A program made the position numbers and the translations under genes. Of a stretch of DNA of 63,523 bases, positions 1,334-63,004 are shown in pieces (position 1 is the first letter of the stretch; every line of letters starts with the position of its first letter). The notes beneath the pieces are model-generated. The model did not search any database, was not told the DNA's origin, and saw only the letters and a program-made list of their open reading frames with translations. The stretch is from assembly GCA_041305185.1 (NCBI GenBank), contig JBFYLW010000065.1, forward strand, positions 1 through 63,523, written 5' to 3'. The DNA comes from Nanobdellota archaeon (GTDB taxonomy: Archaea > Nanobdellota > Nanobdellia > Woesearchaeales > ARS49).

Positions 1334-1387
1334 TTATTGCAACAACCCATCCAGCTCAGAATGCACCCTTGACTCAAAATCAGCAAC
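1334..1387 (-). repeat. Orphan duplicate of the mre11 3' end, including a stop codon
   Basis: The minus-strand reading ...ADFESRVHSELDGLLQ* parallels the real mre11 terminus ...ADFESRVHSELDKLLE* at 2452-2505. 1350-1387 and 2468-2505 match at 37 of 38 nt, and 1355-1387 equals 2473-2505 exactly. Confidence 0.85.
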
Positions 1388-1436
1388 ACTCCTGACAACA
1401 AAAACTTTAAATAGTATATCTGAGTCATACCATTTT

Positions 1437-1988
1437 ATGGCGAGCCCGAGCAAGGAAGAAAACGTGCTAAAACTCATACTGGAAAACAGCCCCCTCAAAG
1501 AATGGCATTTCGAAGAGATAGTCAGAGAAGCCAAAACCACAAAAGCAGTATCAAACAAATGGCTTAAAAAATACACAAAAAAAGGACTGCTGAAAAGAAT
1601 CAAGAAAAAAGGAAAATTTCCCTACTTTACATCAGGAAGCAACAACCCCGCTTATCAGTCCTTGAAGAAAATTTACGCCCTAGAACAACTTTTCAAAAGC
1701 GGACTAATCCAAAAACTATTATCACTCAAAAAAGCCAGAACAATCATAATATTCGGCAGCACAATAAAAGGCGACTGGTACAAAGACTCAGACATAGACA
1801 TTTTCATATACGGAAACGCAGACGAACTTGAAAAAAACATTTATGAACTAAAACTAGGCAGAAACATAGAATTGCACGTTTTCGAAAACAAAGAGGAAAT
1901 ACAAGAAGTCAAGACAGGATTAATAAAAAACATTATCAACGGATATTTCGTAAAAGGCCAAATACAAGACATAGCAGAGGTCGCATGA
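1437..1988 (+). CDS. Minimal nucleotidyltransferase (MNT) with an N-terminal winged-helix-like region
   Basis: Motif IIIFGSTIKGDWYKDSDIDIFIY (GS...DxD). ATG at 1437 lies 22 nt after the TATA-like ctttaaatag. The TTG start at 1287 in the ORF track would read through the orphan mre11 fragment and is unlikely. Confidence 0.75.
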   Translation: MASPSKEENVLKLILENSPLKEWHFEEIVREAKTTKAVSNKWLKKYTKKGLLKRIKKKGKFPYFTSGSNNPAYQSLKKIYALEQLFKSGLIQKLLSLKKARTIIIFGSTIKGDWYKDSDIDIFIYGNADELEKNIYELKLGRNIELHVFENKEEIQEVKTGLIKNIINGYFVKGQIQDIAEVA

Positions 1989-2449
1989 AAATTGATATTG
2001 ACGATTTGGACAAAACATACAAATTATGCATTAGCACAGGAAAATTCAAGGAAAAAACACCTGACACAGAATTGATAAGGTCACTAAAAATTGTGGCTGA
2101 GAAAGGACTGGAATTCATAAAAAACAAATCTAAAGACATACCAAAAGACAGCACTGATTGGACATTCGTATTCAGAGACTACTACGAATCACTAAGGGGA
2201 CTCATTGAAGCATACCTTCTATTCGAAGGCATAGAAGCCGACAACCACCAATGCAAAAACGCACACATCTGCTTTAAGCATCCAGAACTCGAACTCGACT
2301 GGAAATTCCTAGAAACAATCAGACTAAAAAGAAATGCAATAAATTACAGAGGACAATTATTAAAGTATGACGACTGGAATATTTTCAAAATAAGGTTTGA
2401 ACTCCACATAAACCTTTTAAAAAACAAAATTGATGAAAAACTAAAATAA
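1985..2449 (+). CDS. HEPN/KNTase_C-like partner of the MNT
   Basis: 154-aa helical protein whose start overlaps the MNT stop (ATGA at 1985-1988). It has an R-x-x-R-N-x-x-x-Y region (RLKRNAINYRG) but no obvious Rx4-6H histidine. The MNT-plus-HEPN gene order is classic. Confidence 0.55.
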   Translation: MKIDIDDLDKTYKLCISTGKFKEKTPDTELIRSLKIVAEKGLEFIKNKSKDIPKDSTDWTFVFRDYYESLRGLIEAYLLFEGIEADNHQCKNAHICFKHPELELDWKFLETIRLKRNAINYRGQLLKYDDWNIFKIRFELHINLLKNKIDEKLK

Positions 2450-2451
2450 CC

Positions 2452-3633
2452 TCATTCAAGCAGCTTGTCCAACTCAGAATGCACCCTTGACTCAAAATCA
2501 GCAACCCTTTCACCATCAGCTTTCTCAGCAGACAAAACAAGCATCAACTTCTTCGCAAGCTCAACATCAAACTCCTTGAACTGAGCAGAATGCTGGTGCA
2601 ACAAAGAATCCTCAACCTCCTCAACATTCGCCTCCTTAACCATAATAACTTCCAACTCCTTGCTCGAAAAAGCATTCGTATTCTTCAAAACAACAAAAGC
2701 ACCCTTAGCATAAACATCAAGAAAAATATCATTCCAACGCAAATCAGCAGGACGACCAGTCTTCAAACAACCAGACACGCGAATTGTAACAATGGCATTA
2801 TTCACATTCGGCAACCTGCGAACTTCAGCCTCAACCTCAGACAAACTCTTGTTATCAGCACTAACAGAAATACAAACAACAGGATGCGCTGCAAGAGGAA
2901 TATGCTTAATGTCTCCATCATTATACAAAACAAAACTGCCCTGTTTCAGTTTTTCAAGCTCGGAAAAACTGTTAGGAAAAACAGGACCAGGAAAAACAAT
3001 ATTCTTGTACTTGCCAACAGAAGAATTCTCAACAACATGAACATGACCACCAGCATAATAATCAAAACCAGCAGGCAACAAACTAACAGCCAAAGCATCC
3101 ATCTCTCCAAGATCTTTAGGTTTCAATTCAGCCAAAGCGCTATGAAACAAAAAAATCTTGAAACCAGACTCATCCTCCAAAAACTCACGAGCAAGAAGCT
3201 TATAGTAACTCGACTCAAGACCAGCCTTCTTGCCAATCAATCCAACAATCTTAGCACCAGACTTGTCTAAAGTAAAATGAAGTTTAATCCTGTTGTCAGG
3301 CAATTCCTCACCTTTTGCGACGTTAACGCCAAGACCAGCATGCTCCAAAACATCAAGCATGGTTTTACCACTTGGAGAAAAATCATGACTGCCAGCAATA
3401 AAGTAAAGCGGAATACTAGAATCATGCAAACGCTTGAACTGCTCAACAGCAACCTTCAAACTATCAATACCAGGAACAGCAGTATTAAACAAATCACCGG
3501 ATAACAAGACAAAGTTCACTTTTTCGGATAGACATTTGTCGATTGCAGAAACAAAAGCTTCAGTATTAGCCATCCTCAACTTAGGCTCACGCCAGCTACC
3601 CAAATGACAATCAGCAAGATGCGCGAATTTCAT
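2452..3633 (-). CDS. mre11: Mre11-type DNA double-strand-break repair nuclease (calcineurin-like metallophosphoesterase)
   Basis: MKFAHLADCHLG, SGDLFN, AGSHD and GGHVH phosphoesterase motifs in the canonical order. It sits directly downstream of herA. Confidence 0.85.
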   Translation of the reverse strand: MKFAHLADCHLGSWREPKLRMANTEAFVSAIDKCLSEKVNFVLLSGDLFNTAVPGIDSLKVAVEQFKRLHDSSIPLYFIAGSHDFSPSGKTMLDVLEHAGLGVNVAKGEELPDNRIKLHFTLDKSGAKIVGLIGKKAGLESSYYKLLAREFLEDESGFKIFLFHSALAELKPKDLGEMDALAVSLLPAGFDYYAGGHVHVVENSSVGKYKNIVFPGPVFPNSFSELEKLKQGSFVLYNDGDIKHIPLAAHPVVCISVSADNKSLSEVEAEVRRLPNVNNAIVTIRVSGCLKTGRPADLRWNDIFLDVYAKGAFVVLKNTNAFSSKELEVIMVKEANVEEVEDSLLHQHSAQFKEFDVELAKKLMLVLSAEKADGERVADFESRVHSELDKLLE

Positions 3634-3757
3634 GATGATACCTCAAAATAGGCTTCGCAATCATGCCAAGGGGGACTACTCAAAAACAGAGTTTTTGAGT
3701 TCCCGGAAATCAAAGATTTCCGCGATAACGCCCGTCCCCCTTTCGAACCCCCGACGC
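3634..3757 (-). other. Structured herA-mre11 intercistronic element: an outer helix enclosing two 8-9-bp hairpins
   Basis: gggggac (3670-3676) pairs with gtccccc (3734-3740). Inside are ctcaaaaac-aga-gtttttgag (3679-3699) and cggaaatc-aaa-gatttccg (3704-3722). The reverse complement of the double hairpin aligns with 7970-8018. Confidence 0.5.
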
Positions 3758-5239
3758 TCATACTAACTTCAATCCCCCAAAACTTTGCCTAACCTTAACA
3801 ACCTTCTTTTCCTCATGCAAAATCTTAATCGGCATAGCAAAAGAAAGGAAATTACTCGTAACAACCGCCTCGCCCTTGTCAAGAGAAGCAATCATACGCT
3901 CATCAGAAGACAAATCCTGCGCAGCACTCTCAATAATAGCCTGACGCTCGGGCTTAAGCTCAATACCCAAAATAATCTTTGTATTAATATTAGCAAGAAC
4001 CTCTCTTGGAATCAAAGAAGGCAACTGAGTAATCGCAATCAAACCAACATTAAACTTACGACCTTCCCTTGCAATCGTAGAAAAAACATTAGAACCACGC
4101 TCAAGCACATCCTTGCCAAGAACTCTAGGCGCTTCCTCCAAAACAATACTAACAACAGGCCTGCTCTTCATCTCCTGCAAAGAATAAGTCTTATGACGCT
4201 CCAAAACCATATTAGCAATCACGCTCCCAATCAAAATCTCAACATTACCATGAAAAGAACTAGTATCAATAATAACAGTCTGACCAGACTCCAAAGCGTT
4301 CACAATATCAGGAACAGTAGTCTGACCAGCATGAACATCAAACACGCCCTGACAAACAACAGCATTGCCGTCAACATCCAAACGCAACAACTGCATCAAA
4401 GTACGCTTAACAACAGCCAAAGTACCCTCATGAAAATCCTGCTTGATAGGATGCTCCAACAAAATAGCACCAATCCAAGCATCCTTGTAAGCATGATAAA
4501 AAGCAGCCAAAGCCTGCCTCTGCGCATCACTCCAATCAACAACACCATCAAAATGACGAGGCAACAACTGACTCAGATTAATCTTCAAAGACCTCCCACC
4601 AGGAGGAGGCTCATGAACAGTAAAATAAACAATCTTATCAGACCTCAATTTCTCAAAATACTCATTATGAGGATCAAGCACTAGCATAGCAGAAAAATCC
4701 TTGTCAAGAGCATCAGACAACAAATTAGTCATCAAGACGCTCTTGCCACGACCAGTAGTGCCTGCAATCAAAACATGATGACTCAAAGCAAGCCTGCCAT
4801 CAATAGAAACAGGAACGTCCAAAACCTTCGAACCAGACCTCAACTTGCCCAAAAACAAAGGATTATGAGGCGTAGTCAAAAAAGAAACATCAGAAGCACA
4901 AATCTCCCTGACTTTCGTAAAAAACGTAGGCAAAGTCTTCGCAGACCGAGCAGACTGCCCAGAAACAAAAGCAAGATTCTTCAAACGCGCAAGAACATAA
5001 TTACGCAACTTAGCATCCATCAACTCAAGCTTGTCATCCTCCTCCAACTTCAAGCCAGAAATAAGCTCCAAATTCTGAGGAGACAACTGAGAGCCATACA
5101 ACAAATCAAAAACCTGCAACAACATCTGACCATCAGAAGTATCAGCAATCAACAACTCGCCAAGCTCCAAAGAAAACCCGCTCTTCTGCCTAACAAGAAT
5201 ATTTCCGAACTCACCACCGATAATCAACCCTTTTGTCAC
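3758..5239 (-). CDS. herA: HerA-type (DUF87/FtsK-like) hexameric helicase ATPase
   Basis: 493 aa with Walker [10 protein letters not shown]. It has the typical HerA N-terminal barrel-like region and lies next to mre11. Confidence 0.8.
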
Positions 5240-5328
5240 AACAAAACTGCTTCAGATGCTCTATATATTCTTTATGCGTCTGGAAAATAATCGTTAGATT
5301 TATAACAAAGAACAAACTAACCACGACC

Positions 5329-5559
5329 ATGAAAAAAGAAGTCCGTAAGGCATTGGTGAAAGCGAAAGAGCTTGAAAAAATACCAACACCAACAAAAGAA
5401 GAAATAATCGGCATCTACAAAGAAGGCATGGGAGAAGCAGAAAAACTAAGAAAACTACTCAAGCCAGAATGGTTCGTCAAAGACGAAGATGCAAAAAAAT
5501 GCAAACGAGAACACCTGAAAAAAGCTCGTTCACCGACGAGAAAAAAGAAAACTTTATAA
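5329..5559 (+). CDS. Small Lys/Glu-rich hypothetical protein
   Basis: ATG at 5329 gives MKKEVRKALVKAKELEKIP... The upstream part of the 5233 ORF overlaps the herA start and looks non-coding. Confidence 0.45.
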   Translation: MKKEVRKALVKAKELEKIPTPTKEEIIGIYKEGMGEAEKLRKLLKPEWFVKDEDAKKCKREHLKKARSPTRKKKTL

Positions 5560-5646
5560 ACAACGGTGATTTCTGAAAAGTTGTCGAGAACAAAAATATC
5601 GACGGGGGAAGGTTACACCTTTCTAAAAAAGACGGAGGAATACAAA

Positions 5647-5877
5647 ATGGCAGAAAAAGTAGCTAAAGTCGGAGTAAAAAAAGTTGAAGGCCATCTCTAC
5701 TTTGTAGACAAGGCAGGCGATGTTTCCAGAGCAAAAATGGCTCGCGGAAGAAAAGGAAAAGCAGGAAAAATAGAAAAAGTAGCCAAAGTAAACGTCAAGA
5801 AAGTCGGCGGATACTTGTACTTTGTAGACAAGGCAGGAGATGTCTCACGAGCAAAAATGGCACGAGGAGGCAAATAA
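5647..5877 (+). CDS. Small basic protein built from a tandem duplication of a ~36-aa module
   Basis: GGAGG lies 7 nt before the ATG at 5647. The modules are EKVAKVGVKKVEGHLYFVDKAGDVSRAKMARG and EKVAKVNVKKVGGYLYFVDKAGDVSRAKMARG. Confidence 0.6.
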   Translation: MAEKVAKVGVKKVEGHLYFVDKAGDVSRAKMARGRKGKAGKIEKVAKVNVKKVGGYLYFVDKAGDVSRAKMARGGK

Positions 5878-5898
5878 ATTATTTTTTTTATCTTTTTC
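5878..5898. terminator. T-rich bidirectional terminator region between convergent genes
   Basis: A T8 run (5882-5889) and a T5 run follow directly after the TAA at 5875-5877. Oligo-T is the archaeal termination signal. Confidence 0.5.
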
Positions 5899-6417
5899 TT
5901 ATAATTTTAGCCCTTTAACAGAATTAGGATAATTAGCTTCAAACAAAGCAAGAACCCGTTTTCTAAGATCCTTAAAAACAGAATTAGCATTGCATACAGC
6001 CTCGCCTGTATCCTTGCCAAGAACTTTATTTTGCAAGTAATCTCTTCGAAGCTTGTTAAGTGTTGATACATAAACATCAGCATCCTCCCTGGGCAAGCCA
6101 TACTTTTTCTGCTCCTCTATACATCTAAGACACTCAGTCAAAGACAATGCAAGATTAAGACCAATAGTATTATGCCTCCAGCCATGATAATAATCATACA
6201 AGTTTTTGAATTCCTTTGCAAGAAAATAAGCCAGATGACCTGAAGGAGTGACGTTATTACTATTCATCCAACCATACTTATCCATTAAATCAAGACCAAC
6301 AGCTATAAGTTCATGCTCATCATCCAAAGGATTTGCAATAGAAACTTCCAACCCCGAAACCTCTTTCATAATATTATGAATGACTCTAAACCGCATAAGA
6401 ATCTTATATTCCCACAT
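5899..6417 (-). CDS. Hypothetical protein; start uncertain (alternatives at 6396 and 6369)
   Basis: No recognisable motifs. A TATA-like attcttaaatatct on the minus strand (~6437-6450) would place a leaderless start near 6417. Composition is non-native (T-rich on the + strand). Confidence 0.4.
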   Translation of the reverse strand: MWEYKILMRFRVIHNIMKEVSGLEVSIANPLDDEHELIAVGLDLMDKYGWMNSNNVTPSGHLAYFLAKEFKNLYDYYHGWRHNTIGLNLALSLTECLRCIEEQKKYGLPREDADVYVSTLNKLRRDYLQNKVLGKDTGEAVCNANSVFKDLRKRVLALFEANYPNSVKGLKL

Positions 6418-6537
6418 AAAAACCAGAAAAATTAAGAGATATTTAAGAATATGCTCGATTAAACAGTCAAATATTCTTAAACAACGAAAATTATATATAC
6501 AGCCCAAAAAAGCATACATGAAAAAGAGAGTGGGTTA

Positions 6538-7170
6538 ATGCTAAACAAAATAAAACAATTTTTCAAAGGATTCCTGACAATGTGGGGACCCAGACAAAAC
6601 TTCAAACTAGGATTGTATGGACCGCCAAACTCCGGAAAAACAACACTAGCCAACAAGATATGCATAGACTGGCTAGGCGAAGAAATGGGAAAAGTCAGCC
6701 CGGTACCACACGAAACAAGAGAAGTAAACATCAAAGAAAAAGTCACAATCAAAGCAAAAGACGGAAGAGAACTAATCTTCAACCTGGTAGACACCCCAGG
6801 CATAGCAACAAAAATCGACTATGAAGACTTCATGAAAACAGGAATGCCTGCAACAAAAGCAAAAAAAAGAGCAAGAGAAGCAACAAAAGGAGTCATAGAA
6901 AGCATCAAATGGCTCGATGAAGTCGACACGGTCCTAGTAGTTCTCGACGGCACACAAGACCCATATTCACAAGTAAACGTCACAATCATAGGCAACCTGG
7001 CAGCAAGAAACATACCAGTACTCATAGTCGCAAACAAAGCAGACCTAAAAAAATACAAAGTCAAAAAAGTACAATCAGCATTCCCACAATACGAAGTCCT
7101 GGGAATCAGCGCAAAATACGGCAAAAACATCGACAAGCTATACGAAAAACTATTCGAACTGGCAAAATAA
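6538..7170 (+). CDS. Small GTP-binding protein (Era/Arf-like P-loop GTPase)
   Basis: G1 GPPNSGKTT, G3 DTPG and G4 NKAD motifs. It is the first gene of a tightly packed three-gene operon. Confidence 0.8.
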   Translation: MLNKIKQFFKGFLTMWGPRQNFKLGLYGPPNSGKTTLANKICIDWLGEEMGKVSPVPHETREVNIKEKVTIKAKDGRELIFNLVDTPGIATKIDYEDFMKTGMPATKAKKRAREATKGVIESIKWLDEVDTVLVVLDGTQDPYSQVNVTIIGNLAARNIPVLIVANKADLKKYKVKKVQSAFPQYEVLGISAKYGKNIDKLYEKLFELAK

Positions 7171-7171
7171 A

Positions 7172-7540
7172 ATGGTAACAATACAATTCGTACCCTACAC
7201 AGAAATAGAAAACCTAAGCGGACTAGGAAGAATAAGAAAACTACTCAACATAGCAAAAACAAACAAGATAGTCCTCCTGCAAGGCAGACTCAGAAAAGAA
7301 GAAGAAACAGAACTCATAAAAACAACAATGGAAGAAATAGACAAAAAATTCAAAGGAATAGAACTAGCAGTAATCAATCCCTCACAAACAGCAAAAGACG
7401 AAATACAAAAGTTCAAGTACGGATTCCTAAACATGTTCTTCGGAGACACACAAGGAATGACAATAATCGGGCCATCAAGCATAGTCAAAAGCATAAAAAA
7501 AGACCCAAACAAAATAGAACTTCTAACCAAAGGGAGATAA
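7172..7540 (+). CDS. Archaeal conserved protein of unknown function (recalled as DUF2073-like)
   Basis: It starts 2 nt after the GTPase stop. I recall this GTPase / DUF2073 / Zn-ribbon DUF2072 gene order as archaeal. Family assignment is from memory only. Confidence 0.5.
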   Translation: MVTIQFVPYTEIENLSGLGRIRKLLNIAKTNKIVLLQGRLRKEEETELIKTTMEEIDKKFKGIELAVINPSQTAKDEIQKFKYGFLNMFFGDTQGMTIIGPSSIVKSIKKDPNKIELLTKGR

Positions 7541-7541
7541 C

Positions 7542-7916
7542 ATGCCCCACCAGTGCATCAGATGCAGCAAAATGTATGCTGACGGCGCACACGAAATACT
7601 ATCAGGATGCCCCTGCGGAGCAAAACTATTCTTCTTCATAAGACAGGAAAAACTAGAACAAGCAAAAAAAGAATTCCCAACAGAACTACCAACAGAACAA
7701 AAAAAACAAATAGAAAACGACGTGCTAAACCTAGTAGGAGCAAAAGACGACCTGCCAGTAGTACTCGACTTTGAAAGCATACACGTAGTCAAACCAGGCA
7801 AATACGAACTAGACTTAGTCAAGCTGTTCAACAACTCACCCCTAATATTCAAACTAGAAGACGGCAAATACGTGATAGACATAGCCGAGAGCTTCCAACG
7901 ATTGAGAAAAAAATGA
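7542..7916 (+). CDS. Zn-ribbon protein (DUF2072-like)
   Basis: The N-terminus MPHQCIRCSKMYADGAHEILSGCPCG has a CxxC...CxC ribbon. It starts 2 nt after the previous stop. Confidence 0.55.
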   Translation: MPHQCIRCSKMYADGAHEILSGCPCGAKLFFFIRQEKLEQAKKEFPTELPTEQKKQIENDVLNLVGAKDDLPVVLDFESIHVVKPGKYELDLVKLFNNSPLIFKLEDGKYVIDIAESFQRLRKK

Positions 7917-39041: not shown

Positions 39042-39065
39042 CATTAATTCAAAAAAGTGAAAAAA

Positions 39066-40112
39066 ATGAAAAAAACCAACACATTACCATTCATTTCCCT
39101 GCTAATAATAGCAGCCATGATTACTGCACCTCTGATAGTTGCAGACGCGTGGGATTCAGATGCCTGGGCAGTAACTGACTCAAGCTGGAGCGGAAACTCT
39201 TTCTCAGTCTTTGACTGGAGCTGGAGCGGAGACGCGTGGGCAGTAGATGATAACAGCTGGAGCGGCGACTCTTTTGCAGTAGACGATAACAGCTGGAGCG
39301 GTGATTCTTTCGCAGTAGATGATAACAGTTGGAGTGGAAGTTCAGATTACGGCAGTACAACAGGCATGGACACAACAACACCAAGCACGCCAGGAGCGAA
39401 TGACTTTGTAGAAGGACTAGGAGGAGTACCTCCAGGAGGACCACTACCACAGCCAGAACCATTCCCAACAAACGCAGACGCCAAATGGCAAAGTTTAGAT
39501 GACATAACAATATACCAAGGAGCAACATCAGGAACAACAATACAGCAAAACATATTCTCAAAATGCTCAGACCCTGATGACAAAAACCTCGAATTCAAAA
39601 TAACAAGCAAATCACAAAACTTCGAACTGGCATTCTCAGGAAGCGACCTCAAAATATACAACCTCAAAACAGCATTCATAGGAAAAGAAATAATAACAAT
39701 TGAATGCAACAAAGTACCAGAAAGCTTTGCATTAAACGTAATACCAAGACAAATAACACCAACACCGCCTGCAACAAGTTCAAGTGATGATGGAGACGGA
39801 ATCAGCGTGTTCATAGGAGCGATAAGACTGCCGGAAGAATCAACAGCAGGAGAACAAATCCCAATACTAATTTCTTTCAAAAACAGCGGCGATAAAAAGC
39901 TTGAAAACGTCAAAGCAGTAGTGGTAATAACAGACTTGGGCGTAAGAGCATCAATAGGCCCATTCGACCTGACAAAAGGAAAAAGCATAAGCAAAACAAT
40001 ATACGTGGAACTGCCTGAAGACACACAAACAGGAACATACACTGCAAGAATAACGATTGACAGCTCATCAGTCCACAGAGTAAAACACCGCGACGTAGAA
40101 GTCATATCTTAG
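39066..40112 (+). CDS. Secreted protein with Trp-rich DDNSWSGDSFAV repeats and a C-terminal CARDB/Ig-like domain
   Basis: Signal peptide MKKTNTLPFISLLIIAAMITAPLIVADA, then repeats, then a beta-sandwich-like tail (GEQIPILISFKNSGDKKLENVKAVVVITDLG...). Confidence 0.65.
   Translation: MKKTNTLPFISLLIIAAMITAPLIVADAWDSDAWAVTDSSWSGNSFSVFDWSWSGDAWAVDDNSWSGDSFAVDDNSWSGDSFAVDDNSWSGSSDYGSTTGMDTTTPSTPGANDFVEGLGGVPPGGPLPQPEPFPTNADAKWQSLDDITIYQGATSGTTIQQNIFSKCSDPDDKNLEFKITSKSQNFELAFSGSDLKIYNLKTAFIGKEIITIECNKVPESFALNVIPRQITPTPPATSSSDDGDGISVFIGAIRLPEESTAGEQIPILISFKNSGDKKLENVKAVVVITDLGVRASIGPFDLTKGKSISKTIYVELPEDTQTGTYTARITIDSSSVHRVKHRDVEVIS
39240..39347 (+). repeat. Three tandem 36-bp coding repeats, with degenerate copies upstream from about 39160
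   Basis: gcagtagatgataacagctggagcggcgactctttt / gcagtagacgataacagctggagcggtgattctttc / gcagtagatgataacagttggagtggaagttcagat. Confidence 0.85.
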
Positions 40113-53986: not shown

Positions 53987-54025
53987 GAAAACAAAAACAT
54001 CATACCCATTTAAGAACTTTTGTTT

Positions 54026-54093
54026 TTTTCAGCACTCTTTTTTGCAGTCTGGTTCGGATTATTAATACGCTCAATATTTCTGCACTTAGGAAA
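54026..54093. repeat. Orphan copy of the 68-bp topA 3'-end segment
   Basis: Identical by eye to 54228-54295. The minus-strand reading continues ...AEKNKSS* to the stop at 54010-54012. Confidence 0.9.
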
Positions 54094-54227
54094 CAAACTT
54101 TTCAAAAAAGTTTGATCAAAACTGCTTTTTGTTCGTGACTCGAGAAGCAATTCATAAATGCTTGCGTTGCAAGCATGTTTAAGACTCTTCTCTCGCACTC
54201 ACAATGTCGCAAACTCAGGCTTTGCCC
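54094..54227 (+). mobile_element. 134-bp hairpin-rich non-coding insert (family member T)
   Basis: Bracketed by the 68-bp duplication. Hairpins are aaactttt-caa-aaaagttt (54095-54113) and atgcttgc-gtt-gcaagcat (54158-54176), with the palindrome tttgatcaaa. It is collinear with 62210-62393. Confidence 0.6.
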
Positions 54228-56428
54228 TTTTCAGCACTCTTTTTTGCAGTCTGGTTCGGATTATTAATACGCTCAATATTTCTGCACTTAGGAAAACGAT
54301 TGCAAGCAAGGAAACTACCATAAACAGACTTACGCACGACCATTTTACCCTCCTTACACTTAGGACAAGGCTTCTCTGCAGTCGCAGGAACAGCCTTACT
54401 AGGACAGTCAAGATTAATACAGACCTCCTGAGGACGCTTGGCTTTGCGAATAATCTTAATCATAGGAAACTTGCAATGAGGACACAAGTTATGAGTAACC
54501 TCAATCAATCCAGAAGAAGGAAGCTTGAAAGTAGTCTTACACTCAGGATACTTGTCACAAGCAATAAACCTGCCAAACTTTCCAAAACGCAAAGTAAGAG
54601 CGCCAGACTTGCAGGCAGGACACTGACCAACAGTCGTCAAAGTAGCCCTAGTCTCACCAAAAGTCTTCTTTAACTCCTCACCAACAATTTTTTCCTTAGA
54701 CTTAAACTCAGAAAGCATTTTCACAAGAACAGTCTTTGCCTCATCAAGAATCTCATCACGATGCTTCTTACCCTCACGAATAGACTCCATATCAATCTCA
54801 AAATGCCTGGTAAGCTCCTCATCCAAAATAGCAGGCGAGTGCTTCTCAAGAATAATAATAATCTCCATACCCAGCTGAGTAACAGTAAAAGACTCACCAG
54901 TAACATAATTACGCCTCTTCAAAGTCTCCACAATCTCAGCACGAGTAGCCTTTGTGCCTAAGTTCCTCTTCTCAAGCTCGCGAATCAAGCTTGCAGGCGT
55001 GTACCTCTTAGGAGGCTGGGTTTGCTCATCATGCAAAACAAACTTCTTGACAGAAATCTCATCGCCCTCCTCCATCTTAGGCAATTCCTCTTCCTCAAGC
55101 TTCACATAAGGAGCATAGAAAATATGCCAGTTCTTCTCAACAGTGCGAGTGCCCTTTGCAACAAAAATTTCCGTATTAACATCAATCCTTGCAATAACAG
55201 TCTCACGAATAGCAGGAGTGCCAAAAACAGAAAAGAAGCGCTTCACAACCAAATCATAAACCTTAGCCTGCCTGTTTTCCAAACTCTTCGGCAAAATACC
55301 AGTAGGAAAAATAGCCGGGTGAGCAGGATCAGTCTTCTTGCCATTATTCGGAACCAACTTATCCTTCTTCAACAACAAATTAGCAAGCTCTGCAAATTCA
55401 GGATGCCTGGCCAAACCCTTCAAAATCTTCTGAAAACCAATACTAGGAGGCAATTCCTGCGAACTAGTACGCGGATAAGAAATCCAACCATTAGTATACA
55501 ATTCCTGAGCAATAGACAAAGTAACACTCGGATTAAGACCAAAACAACGATACGCCTCTGTCTGCAAACTCGTAAGATCAAAAGGAACAGGAGGATTCTG
55601 ATGGAATTGCCCTTTCTTAACCTGAGCAACCTTACCCTTCTTCTTATCCTGCACCTTGCCCATCACGGCAACAGCCTTATCCTTTTCCCAGAACTTATCA
55701 GCCTCATGCCAAGCAACAAGAGACTCACTCTTAGCCTTAGCCTGAAGCTCAATCATCCAATAAGGCACAGGCTTGAAAGCAAGAATCTCACGCTCCCTGT
55801 CAGCAAGAATCTTCAAAGCAGGACCCTGAACACGACCAGTGCTCAAAATCTTGAACATACCAGCATTCTTAATCGCGCTCGTCAACGCCCTTGACAAATT
55901 AATACCATAATAAAAATCCAAAAAGTGACGAGTCTCACCAGCCTCTGCCTGACCCCAATCCAGATGAGCAGAAGCCTTCTCATAAGCCTCAACAAGATCC
56001 TCCTTAGTCAAAGTCGAAAACTTCAAACGATGAGCATCATTCTTATTACAAACAAAACGAACAATATTCAATCCAATAACTTCGCCCTCAACATCGTAGT
56101 CAGTTGCCACAGAAACACTTGAAGCACCCTTAGCAAGCTTTTTCAAAGCATCCAAATACTTCTTAGTAAAAGCAGAATTCTTGTTAATCGTACACGTAGG
56201 CACCCACTCAATATCAAAAACAGGATAAGCAAAACCCTTGGACTTAGTCTTCTCAGCCAAACCAAACAAGTGACCAACAGCACAGCCAACAACAATATCC
56301 TTCTTACCATGCTTAAGCTCATAATAAGGAATACCCTTAATGTCCTTTTTTGATGGAGACCCATCAGCCAAAGCCTCTGCAATACGCTTGGCGGCATCAG
56401 GTTTTTCAGAAACGATTAATTCGTACAT
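54215..56428 (-). CDS. topA: Type IA DNA topoisomerase I with C-terminal Zn-ribbon repeats
   Basis: N-terminal Toprim MYELIVSEKPDAAKRIA...; repeated CPxC...C(x)C zinc ribbons (CPACKSG, CPHCKFP, CPKCKEG). The last 4 codons plus the stop come from the insert. Confidence 0.9.
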   Translation of the reverse strand: MYELIVSEKPDAAKRIAEALADGSPSKKDIKGIPYYELKHGKKDIVVGCAVGHLFGLAEKTKSKGFAYPVFDIEWVPTCTINKNSAFTKKYLDALKKLAKGASSVSVATDYDVEGEVIGLNIVRFVCNKNDAHRLKFSTLTKEDLVEAYEKASAHLDWGQAEAGETRHFLDFYYGINLSRALTSAIKNAGMFKILSTGRVQGPALKILADREREILAFKPVPYWMIELQAKAKSESLVAWHEADKFWEKDKAVAVMGKVQDKKKGKVAQVKKGQFHQNPPVPFDLTSLQTEAYRCFGLNPSVTLSIAQELYTNGWISYPRTSSQELPPSIGFQKILKGLARHPEFAELANLLLKKDKLVPNNGKKTDPAHPAIFPTGILPKSLENRQAKVYDLVVKRFFSVFGTPAIRETVIARIDVNTEIFVAKGTRTVEKNWHIFYAPYVKLEEEELPKMEEGDEISVKKFVLHDEQTQPPKRYTPASLIRELEKRNLGTKATRAEIVETLKRRNYVTGESFTVTQLGMEIIIILEKHSPAILDEELTRHFEIDMESIREGKKHRDEILDEAKTVLVKMLSEFKSKEKIVGEELKKTFGETRATLTTVGQCPACKSGALTLRFGKFGRFIACDKYPECKTTFKLPSSGLIEVTHNLCPHCKFPMIKIIRKAKRPQEVCINLDCPSKAVPATAEKPCPKCKEGKMVVRKSVYGSFLACNRFPKCRNIERINNPNQTAKKSAEKGKA

Positions 56429-59503: not shown

Positions 59504-60674
59504 CATCGAGCAAGAAGTAGAAGACATTTCTAAAGGAGAATCCGCCGAAGGAAAACTACACAAACAATACGTAGAAGACAAACTAATGAATTCAGTTCTA
59601 CAGTCAGACAAAAACACAATAGAACACGCAGAACTAATACACGAAGCAACAAACAGAAGCATAGGAGCATTCACGCCCAGCCTGCTGTTTGCGCAAATGG
59701 TCCAAAACTTCTCAATAACAAAACAATTACTCGGAGACAAACTCATAAGATTATTAACAGGGTATGACCCCAATTACATCGAGAAAAACCTGAAAATACC
59801 AGAATTCAGAAAAGAACTACAGAAAGCTTTGTACCAAAACGTTGAGAAACTAAAAGAAGAAGACCTTGTAGACAGAGAAGGACTCATAACGAGCAAAGGA
59901 GCAGAACTCGGAGCAATAGTTCTAGTAAAAGAACTCGACAATTTCATAACAAAAGACAAAATAGGCGAAAAAGTAAACAAAAAAACAGCACATTACGGAG
60001 AAAAAACAGAAACAAGAAAATACAAACACGGAGACAGGTACAAGGATTTGAACATGAAAAGGTCAGTTCACATGGCAATAAGAAGACAACACGCCAAACT
60101 TCACGGAGAAGACCTAATGACCTCGCAAAGAGAAGGCAGAGGAAAAATATCTTTGATATTCGCTTTGGACGCATCAGCAAGCATGAAAGGCAGAAAACTT
60201 GATACTTGCAAAAGAGCAGGAATAGCACTCGCATACAGAGCAATAGAAGACAAAGATGACGTGGGAGTAGTAGTATTTGGAAGCGAAATCAAATCAGCAA
60301 TACCACCAACAAGAGACTTTACAACAATACTAAACGAAATATCACGCATAAAAGCCAGCAGGCAAACAGACTTCGCAGCCATGATAGCAAAAAGCGTCGA
60401 AATGTTTCCAGCAACAGACGAAACAAAACATTTGATAATACTCACAGACGCACTGCCAACAGTAGGCATTGAACCAGAAAAAGAAACACTACAAGCAATA
60501 AGCGCGGCAAGAGGAGCAGGAATAACAGTTTCTTTGATAGGAGTACAATTAGACGAAGCAGGAGCAAAACTGGCAAAACAAATAGTCCGAATAGGAGAAG
60601 GCAGATTCAGCATGGTAAAAGATTTAGACCAAGTAGGACACATAGTATTGGAAGACTATTACGCGATGAGATAG
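59487..60674 (+). CDS. von Willebrand factor A (VWA) domain protein; start uncertain
   Basis: MIDAS-type LIFALDASASMKG... in the C-terminal half. It overlaps the AAA+ gene by 17 nt. Confidence 0.7.
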   Translation: MVVVFDIEQEVEDISKGESAEGKLHKQYVEDKLMNSVLQSDKNTIEHAELIHEATNRSIGAFTPSLLFAQMVQNFSITKQLLGDKLIRLLTGYDPNYIEKNLKIPEFRKELQKALYQNVEKLKEEDLVDREGLITSKGAELGAIVLVKELDNFITKDKIGEKVNKKTAHYGEKTETRKYKHGDRYKDLNMKRSVHMAIRRQHAKLHGEDLMTSQREGRGKISLIFALDASASMKGRKLDTCKRAGIALAYRAIEDKDDVGVVVFGSEIKSAIPPTRDFTTILNEISRIKASRQTDFAAMIAKSVEMFPATDETKHLIILTDALPTVGIEPEKETLQAISAARGAGITVSLIGVQLDEAGAKLAKQIVRIGEGRFSMVKDLDQVGHIVLEDYYAMR

Positions 60675-62172: not shown

Positions 62173-62209
62173 TCATGAAAATACTCGCCTTCACAGATTT
62201 GCACTCCAA
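62173..62209. repeat. Orphan copy of the 37-bp metallophosphoesterase 5'-end segment (includes the ATG)
   Basis: tcatgaaaatactcgccttcacagatttgcactccaa is identical to 62394-62430. Confidence 0.9.
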
Positions 62210-62393
62210 ACTTTTGGAAAGTTTCAAAGAGCAAAGCTCTTTGAGACCCCGTCGAACTTCGTTCGACGTTGGTTTGATCAAAAGGCGTTCTTCGTTCAGG
62301 CTCCAGAAGCAATTTGATAAATCCTTGTCTTCGACAAGGATGTTTATGACTCTTCTCTCGCCCTCACGATATCACGCAATCCGGAGGCTGCTT
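62210..62393 (+). mobile_element. 184-bp hairpin-rich non-coding insert (family member M)
   Basis: Hairpins are tcaaagagc-aaa-gctctttga (62224-62244), cgtcgaac-ttc-gttcgacg (62250-62268) and atccttgtc-ttc-gacaaggat (62321-62341), with the palindrome tttgatcaaa. The 3' module gtttatgactcttctctcgccctcacgatatcacgcaa matches the topA-locus insert. Confidence 0.6.
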
Positions 62394-62395
62394 TC

Positions 62396-63004
62396 ATGAA
62401 AATACTCGCCTTCACAGATTTGCACTCCAACATAATAGCATATGAAAGAATAAAAGCAAAAGTCAAAAAGTTCAAGCCAGAACTCATATTCTGCCTGGGA
62501 GACTTCACCTACTTCGAACAATACATAGAACAAGTACTGCGAAAACTAAACGAGCTAAAAAAACCAGTCTACATCATACATGGAAACCATGAAAATGAAT
62601 CCATAGTAAAAAAAATCTGCCAAAGACACCGCAACCTGATATACGCACACAACAAAGTAATACCGCTCAACGGATACACAATAATAGCGCATGGCGGCGG
62701 AGGATTCTACACCAGCGGAAAATCAGCAAGAGACAAAGATTTCGACAAACTCATCAGAAAAAACAAGAAAAAACTCAAAGGCAAACTAATACTGTTAACA
62801 CATGCACCGCCCAGAAAAACAAAACTGGACAGACTCAGCTGGGCAGGACACGTAGGATGTGAAAGCTACCTGGAATTCATAAAAAAGTACAAACCAATAC
62901 TCGCACTATCCGGACACCTACACGAAAACTTTAACACCAAAGACAAAAAAGGAAAAACATTAATCTGCAATCCCGGGCCAGCAGGAACGGTGTTCACGAT
63001 ATGA
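62396..63004 (+). CDS. Calcineurin-like metallophosphoesterase (MJ0936/YfcE-like)
   Basis: MKILAFTDLHS, GDFTY, GNHE, and the HGGG...TH...GH motif order. Confidence 0.8.
   Translation: MKILAFTDLHSNIIAYERIKAKVKKFKPELIFCLGDFTYFEQYIEQVLRKLNELKKPVYIIHGNHENESIVKKICQRHRNLIYAHNKVIPLNGYTIIAHGGGGFYTSGKSARDKDFDKLIRKNKKKLKGKLILLTHAPPRKTKLDRLSWAGHVGCESYLEFIKKYKPILALSGHLHENFNTKDKKGKTLICNPGPAGTVFTI

Follow-up and report, generated by a model that had tools for sequence, protein, structure and literature searches.

How can a short non-coding sequence settle at the end of a gene, between two copies of that gene's own terminus, and leave the gene intact? The question is raised by a 63,523-nt contig of a Nanobdellota archaeon of the Woesearchaeales (JBFYLW010000065.1 of assembly GCA_041305185.1, hereafter the window), in which a 134-nt insert separates two direct repeats of the 3' end of topA, the gene for type IA DNA topoisomerase. 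DPANN archaea have tiny, tightly packed genomes with few recognised mobile elements, and their acquisition of DNA is poorly understood. From our analyses, we conclude with high confidence that the insert belongs to a genuine family of structured elements, here called E, and that the repeats flanking it are real and allelic. We tentatively propose that these repeats reflect two junctions, one homologous and the other illegitimate and anchored at a terminus of E, rather than a target duplicated by a staggered cut.

The two topA repeats, which an earlier note on this DNA had matched by eye, agree at 68/68 positions (Table 1), and the similarity reaches 75 nt at 96% identity when extended. As that note had read, the C-terminus of topA has been rewritten to ...SAEKGKA, the final codons and TGA stop being the reverse complement of the E tail, and the orphan copy still reads ...KNKSS to a stop at 54010, running unbroken into the native spacer ahead of a Lon-like gene. 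The ...KSS ending of the orphan copy is the usual C-terminus in many Woesearchaeota topA proteins. The 10-nt segment between the right repeat and E, which holds the GKA codons, was considered as native topA sequence and rejected; it is a degenerate E tail (CTAGACC). Folding of the insert (z = -2.9) starts with a hairpin, P1, that has a 9-bp stem and a 3-nt loop (54094-54114), so that the hairpin and loop described earlier at 54095-54113 hold, and the extent, given there as 8 bp, does not. The palindrome TTTGATCAAA (54111-54120) and the perfect hairpin ATGCTTGC-GTT-GCAAGCAT (54158-54176), both noted before, were located within a long imperfect hairpin. This insert represents a short form of E, in which the long imperfect hairpin is placed at 54123-54211, the apical hairpin at 54158-54176, and the tail reads ACTCAGGCTTTGCCC.

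A second, collinear insert had been proposed at 62210-62393 and was confirmed there between 37-nt repeats of the start of a metallophosphoesterase gene. It represents a long form of E, which has two additional hairpins after P1, here between P1 and TTTGATCAAA, and its tail places GGAGG 9 nt upstream of the metallophosphoesterase ATG. Three independent JGI assemblies (L003, L053 and L057) share the topA structure, aligning over 9-16 kb at 99.3-99.7% identity and showing 2 mismatches in the orphan copy, and the 62-kb structure is also carried by one metagenome-assembled genome (MAG) at NCBI (L071). These structures are therefore no assembly artefact, a conclusion that the same layout at dozens more loci reinforces. 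Empty topA sites, with 9-28 nt from the topA stop to the Lon-like start, were found only in relatives with 77-82% topA identity (L067-L069), none of them near enough to tell which topA copy is native. For the metallophosphoesterase, an exact-protein look-up for empty sites returned solely a contig with the same E-bearing structure.

The earlier view of a mobile, hairpin-rich, non-coding insert that spares its host gene by duplication is borne out by the family to which both inserts belong. E is a non-coding structured repeat of ~125-185 nt, of which a profile search recovered 47 unique copies, only two of them in the window. In GTDB species genomes, an exact-pattern scan gave 21 true E loci, a single MAG having as many as five; the scan gave ~38 in JGI metagenomes, and 0 matches in IMG/VR to either the E core or the E tail. 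The family appears restricted to Woesearchaeota/Nanoarchaeia. By title, most E-bearing records belong to Woesearchaeota, Nanoarchaeia or an uncultured archaeon, and some to Methanosarcinales; the GTDB records L007, L013, L017, L018, L021-L024 and L026 represent several MAGs with the title 'uncultured Methanosarcinales archaeon'. These titles may be misassigned, since Mre11 on a contig of one such MAG (L078, CAYUHB01) is 91% identical to that of the window. Rfam, at gathering and permissive thresholds, holds no family for E: only tRNAs reached threshold, and the best sub-threshold E-value was 0.11. No description of E or of its layout in DPANN archaea was found in the literature searched, which is not proof of absence.

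Read in plus orientation, E starts with P1 (CAAACTTT-loop-AAAGTTTG), followed by ATCAAA, which together with the end of P1 forms the palindrome TTTGATCAAA. The middle is the long imperfect hairpin, in which the segments TCGAGAAGCA and AGACTCTTCTCTC are invariant and the apical hairpin varies, and the 3' portion consists of ATGTCGCGCAA and a tail ending in (A)CTCAGGTCTAG. This secondary structure is well supported by covariation: 96.5% of cells are paired, compared with 38-49% in controls in which the partners were slid, and there are 125 compensatory cells as opposed to 3-20 in the controls. Counts of G-U against A-C favoured neither strand. Between non-orthologous loci, the identity of the copies does not exceed 93%, which indicates an old family; since some of the flanking repeats are 100% identical, the formation or homogenisation of repeats must be younger than E. 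Small structured repeats at gene ends are familiar from the bacterial REP/BIME, Correia/NEMIS and RPE elements, which are likewise multi-copy, hairpin-forming and ~100-150 nt long, and which, like E, may provide stops, terminators or ribosome-binding sites. However, their target duplications are short or absent, and none of them lies between duplicated gene ends of 15-103 nt.

Several other identities for E were considered and rejected. A bulge-helix-bulge (BHB) intron, a C/D or H/ACA small RNA, an attC site, and a bridge or omega guide RNA were discarded from inspection of the sequence, whose internal loops stay the same at differing targets and which has no box or core motifs. The E ends (..CAAAC and GTCGCGC..) do not fit the integron attC core RYYYAAC ... 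GTTRRRY, and no integrase is present. 'Master copies' of E with a promoter of their own were also rejected, the GGGGTTTATAAAG motif being the leftward promoters of the spt5-rpl11 and rpsB operons; this motif is conserved beside some copies of E that lack repeats. E as the end of a larger integrated element was rejected as well, long-range repeats not being found.

Restriction-site-like palindromes are conserved in E, namely GATC within TTTGATCAAA (54111-54120), CTCGAG (54139-54144) and TCTAGA/CTAG at the tail. Stand-alone P1 sites are rare, with only one in ~0.5 Mb of E loci: a lone second P1-like hairpin (L006, 7802-7823) in the interval from a complete E to a tRNA gene, at a distance of 16 nt from that E. 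In IMG/VR, a search with just the P1 motif gave 5 matches, on phage or giant-virus contigs. In two of these records (L073, 400-510; L075, ~2600-2660) it takes the form CAAACTTT-loop-AAAGTTTGATCAAA, once in tandem, beside other hairpins and without the E core. The viral motifs are probably unrelated, AT-rich, terminator-like hairpins.

Significant direct repeats of 15-103 nt, with 74-100% identity, abut E in 29 of the 44 evaluable copies. They are gene ends, either 3' or 5' ends of protein genes or tRNA halves. Many are 3' ends of protein genes converging on the E tail, which supplies TAG or TGA stops when reverse-complemented. Among the others are the 3' half of tRNA-Cys (L008), whose 44 nt begin at the anticodon loop and reach the 3' end, the 3' end of tRNA-His (L011, L024), the 5' end of tRNA-Met with its promoter (L013, L031, L045) and the metallophosphoesterase start, which is duplicated both in the window and in L004. 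The remaining 15/44 copies have no repeat, and orthologous loci differ in repeat length, so repeats do not necessarily result from insertion. The two ends of E behave differently. Its P1 end is joined exactly in all repeat-bearing copies examined, sometimes with an overlap of 2-3 nt, whereas its tail end is ragged, having lost 0-14 nt or being followed by 3-45 nt of other sequence (filler). The P1-side boundary of the repeat varies between orthologous loci, as seen at topA, at the metallophosphoesterase gene (window versus L004) and at the gene shared by L014, L021 and L036, where L021 and L036 have unlike boundaries. Four records (L001, L005, L022 and L035) contain repeat-E-repeat-E-repeat arrays with differing E subtypes and seamless tails; in L038, E lies at the topA end and the orphan copy is absent.

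Long flanking repeats alone do not set E apart from transposons. The earlier statement that they exceed those of any transposase is wrong, because IS1634 and IS1549 generate direct repeats of variable length, 8-514 bp, and their family is frequent in Euryarchaeota (PMC2266710). E could accordingly be a miniature inverted-repeat transposable element (MITE), a non-autonomous derivative of such a DDE insertion sequence with true target-site duplications as its repeats, and both E ends do match the very weak family end consensus C-----YT. Yet the left end CAAACTTT and the reverse complement of the right end CTAGACCT agree at 3/8 positions, no convincing terminal inverted repeats were found, and the right end is ragged. 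Neither a partner element nor a transposase was seen in ~0.5 Mb of E-bearing loci or in the window, and many copies lack a repeat. The known elements, moreover, are 1.5-2 kb long, encode a transposase and make repeats that are identical at birth. With a mismatch pattern that is not neutral (see below), the MITE explanation is improbable.

An integrase would account for other features. If a tyrosine or serine integrase acted in trans on a miniature integrative element, that element would carry an attP arm in E and be flanked by attL and attR, much as the earlier note had imagined a miniature att-carrying element. Surrogate gene ends with allelic repeats, both found here, are the classic signature of such integration, the tRNA-Cys repeat has the expected anticodon-loop-to-3'-end extent, and the arrays look like tandem accretion. 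Integrative elements with surrogate gene ends, cis-mobilizable elements without integrase, and tycheposon-type arrays (bioRxiv 10.1101/2020.12.28.424599) all place an insert between two gene-end copies that leave the gene intact, with allele-like copies, the same kind of tRNA repeat and serial insertions that build arrays. In contrast, E is a non-coding sequence of ~130 nt with one core at more than 15 unrelated targets, and its repeat boundaries vary at a single gene. Drawn from more than 15 genes, the repeats are unrelated in sequence and share no common att core, and a classical site-specific integrase is therefore unlikely. Moreover, P1 is not divided between the two junctions, and no long-range repeats define a larger element around the repeat-less copies. 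A Pfam scan of the 60 open reading frames (ORFs) in the window found no integrase, transposase, reverse transcriptase or Cas1, as had been stated for the first three, and no integrase lies near any E copy. Of the att-element idea, what stands is that the repeat copies are distinct alleles; we regard integrase-mediated movement as improbable. The insert flanked by a surrogate gene end and a displaced native one is thus of a known kind. What is new here is a structured, non-coding insert of 130 nt, at many unrelated targets, with varying boundaries, one exact terminus and no recombinase in the window.

The differences between repeat copies carry most of the argument about origin. At 13 protein-gene loci, 71 of the 90 mismatches between copies fall at third codon positions, 15 at first and 4 at second positions. 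An orphan decaying in place spreads its changes over all positions, so that at most about half would be third-position changes; the observed excess (79%) has a p of about 1e-18 against an expectation of 1/3 and of 3e-8 against this ceiling of 0.5. In-situ decay is therefore rejected, and both copies are alleles that each evolved as coding sequence. The same pattern argues against an insertion mechanism that duplicates gene ends by a staggered cut, as had been suggested earlier. Two related loci illustrate the allelic nature of the copies: L014 and L036 have identical E and gene bodies, but their orphan alleles differ at 9 positions, all third-position, their left flanks are non-homologous, and a patch of 11 differences is limited to the functional repeat copy. 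In sister strains of the window (L003, L055), orphan and functional copies differ by two synonymous changes each, the only departures from the window being synonymous changes in the orphan copies; the identity of the two copies in the window points to gene conversion.

Mismatches between repeats that flank a structured spacer at a gene 3' end might recall the template and variable repeats of a diversity-generating retroelement (DGR), and DGRs have been reported in DPANN archaea. The mismatches, however, are not adenine-specific but spread over all four bases (67/117 transitions), so E is not a DGR; targets include tRNAs and gene starts, and the window has no reverse transcriptase. This explanation, like that of an assembly artefact, is effectively refuted.

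The layout also occurs without E. At the mre11 gene in the window, an orphan 3' end (~1330-1390, ...SELDGLLQ and stop) is followed by a 1.08-kb MNT/HEPN-like cassette (~1391-2451) and the functional end (2452-2508, ...SELDKLLE and stop). The orphan end, still in frame and with its stop, has the same C-terminus as the nearest homologue (P0121, 92% identical). In the relatives L077 (455-2400) and L078 (1780-5300 of CAYUHB010000034.1), differing toxin-antitoxin cassettes (HEPN/MNT, PemK/MazE and MazE/PIN) are arrayed downstream of mre11 and split by orphan mre11 ends of 35-57 nt, which retain frame and stop codon and get progressively shorter (...GLLK, ...GLLN, ...GLLQ, each before a stop). The arrays resemble an integron-like hot spot, in which no integrase was seen. 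Because the same layout surrounds cassettes, the allelic gene-end duplication is a general insertion footprint in these archaea and not specific to E.

We return to recombination between alleles, the most parsimonious reading, which we tentatively favour and consider plausible, though a little short of probable. DNA carrying E, or a cassette, beside a gene end would meet a different allele of that gene. On one side, the two would be joined by homology inside the gene; on the other, a DNA end exactly at the foot of P1 would be joined illegitimately, with 0-4 nt of microhomology, at a variable point in the gene. The break at the P1 foot may be made by a hairpin nuclease acting with host recombination, or by an E-specific enzyme. 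The product would consist, in order, of the gene body, a gene end, E, a second 'orphan' gene end and the native flank, with the gene intact and its two ends derived from different alleles; later gene conversion could homogenise both repeat copies, as in the window. Formally, this would be Campbell-type integration or homology-facilitated illegitimate recombination (PMC3240628), which likewise combines a homologous with a microhomology junction, leaves a variable recipient duplication and needs no dedicated recombinase. That process is known from bacterial transformation and conjugation, and E differs from it in that the illegitimate junction is always at P1. Recombination between alleles explains the variable repeat lengths, the repeat-less copies, the differing P1-side boundaries, the seamless arrays, the allelic copies and the toxin-antitoxin arrays. 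The junctions found are those expected of such a product, one homologous and one with microhomology, between copies that are differing alleles; the process outlined may have made them.

Several points weigh against recombination between alleles. The P1 junction is always exact and the other E end ragged, whereas a random illegitimate join would retain some donor flank, so the model requires an E-specific or hairpin-specific break that is itself conjectural. Homologous exchange is inefficient where the shared stretch measures 20-100 nt and diverges by up to 25%, and no responsible recombinase was found by the Pfam scan of the window or at the E-bearing loci. The comparisons assign neither copy of a pair as the foreign one. 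An ordinary target-site duplication that is subject to frequent recombination between alleles could likewise become enriched in third-position differences, and the primary spread of E to new loci is not explained by the model.

Target-primed insertion, as in short interspersed nuclear elements (SINEs), is the serious main rival, although we consider it unlikely on the whole. Here, the 3'-OH of a nicked target would prime copying from the exact 3' end (P1) of an E template, which would be either single-stranded DNA or an RNA read by a reverse transcriptase; the new strand would rejoin by microhomology upstream of the nick, leaving 0-100 nt duplicated, or would rejoin seamlessly at a resident E. 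This would fit one exact E end and another that is shortened or carries filler, the 0-4 nt of microhomology at junctions, repeat lengths of 0-103 nt, the seamless E arrays, the want of terminal inverted repeats, and an RNA-like covarying structure that ends in a terminal hairpin. At most loci, judging from gene orientation, the reverse complement of E runs in the direction of the gene whose 3' end precedes it and would be transcribed as a 3' untranslated region. SINEs and other retroposons of the non-LTR (long terminal repeat) type are similarly small, structured and non-autonomous; their 3' end is exact and their 5' end variable, as in E, and they share variable target duplications and junction microhomology with it. 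Unlike them, E has no A-rich tail. The G-U and A-C counts show no strand preference, the reverse transcriptase or polymerase that the model needs was not found, the window having no reverse transcriptase, and an RNA intermediate would be conjectural. Furthermore, the allelic mismatches and differing orthologous boundaries would require additional recombination, the same layout around toxin-antitoxin cassettes of 0.7-1.1 kb is not covered, and the age of the E copies (no more than 93% identity between loci) counts against it as well. Elements of the SINE or non-LTR type are not known from archaea or bacteria.

Table 1. Coordinates of element E, its flanking repeats and the mre11 cassette site in the window.
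Feature	Position	Strand	Remarks
mre11-end duplication around MNT/HEPN-like cassette, without E	1350..2508 (about 1330-2508)		Orphan end ...SELDGLLQ, functional end ...SELDKLLE
Orphan topA 3' end	54010..54093	-	Left repeat copy 54026-54093 plus native tail ...AEKNKSS, stop 54010-54012
Element E, short form, 134 nt	54094..54227	+	nhmmer E = 1e-32; P1 hairpin 54094-54114, TTTGATCAAA palindrome 54111-54120
Right repeat copy, functional topA 3' end	54228..54295	-	Continuous with gene body
topA, type IA DNA topoisomerase	54215..56428	-	Last three codons and stop inside E tail
Left repeat copy, orphan metallophosphoesterase start (ATG 62175)	62173..62209	+	Native promoter region still upstream
Element E, long form, 184 nt	62210..62393	+	nhmmer E = 5e-26; collinear with short form
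Right repeat copy, functional metallophosphoesterase start	62394..62430	+	Gene 62396-63004

Some further features of the window were recorded. Genes for the Mre11-like nuclease, a HerA helicase and the origin-associated OapB and OapC are clustered at 2452-7916, and the window may lie near a replication origin. A 36-nt periodic repeat at 39158-39337, with four overlapping 72-nt copies ending in ...AGCTGGAGCGG, is found in ORF 39057-40112, which has no Pfam match and probably encodes a repetitive surface protein. The sister strain L053 (99.7% identical) has a strain-specific insertion of 1.8 kb (L053, 1322-3128) at about window position 60672-60674, between a VWA-domain gene and the next gene; it contains a TrmB-like regulator and small ORFs.

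What emerges from the analysis is a family of structured elements found across the lineage and, with it, a layout that recurs, toxin-antitoxin arrays included, in which an insert lies between two alleles of a gene end. For genome annotation, this calls for caution: orphan gene ends, tRNA halves and altered C-termini at such sites are products of the event. It is conceivable, though doubtful, that E is the first SINE-like, target-primed archaeal retroposon, or else a non-coding, 'homology-armed' cassette with a P1 that a dedicated nuclease cuts. Either way, E insertion would make gene-end duplications of up to ~100 nt, and E would serve DPANN genomes as a main path for gaining and exchanging small DNA cassettes. 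Should the agent prove to be a nuclease or reverse transcriptase specific to the element, this would be a new mode of transposition, a prospect that we rate as the lesser one but of some weight. The layout itself, with one homologous and one illegitimate join, offers a concrete and testable footprint of recombination between lineages of these archaea.

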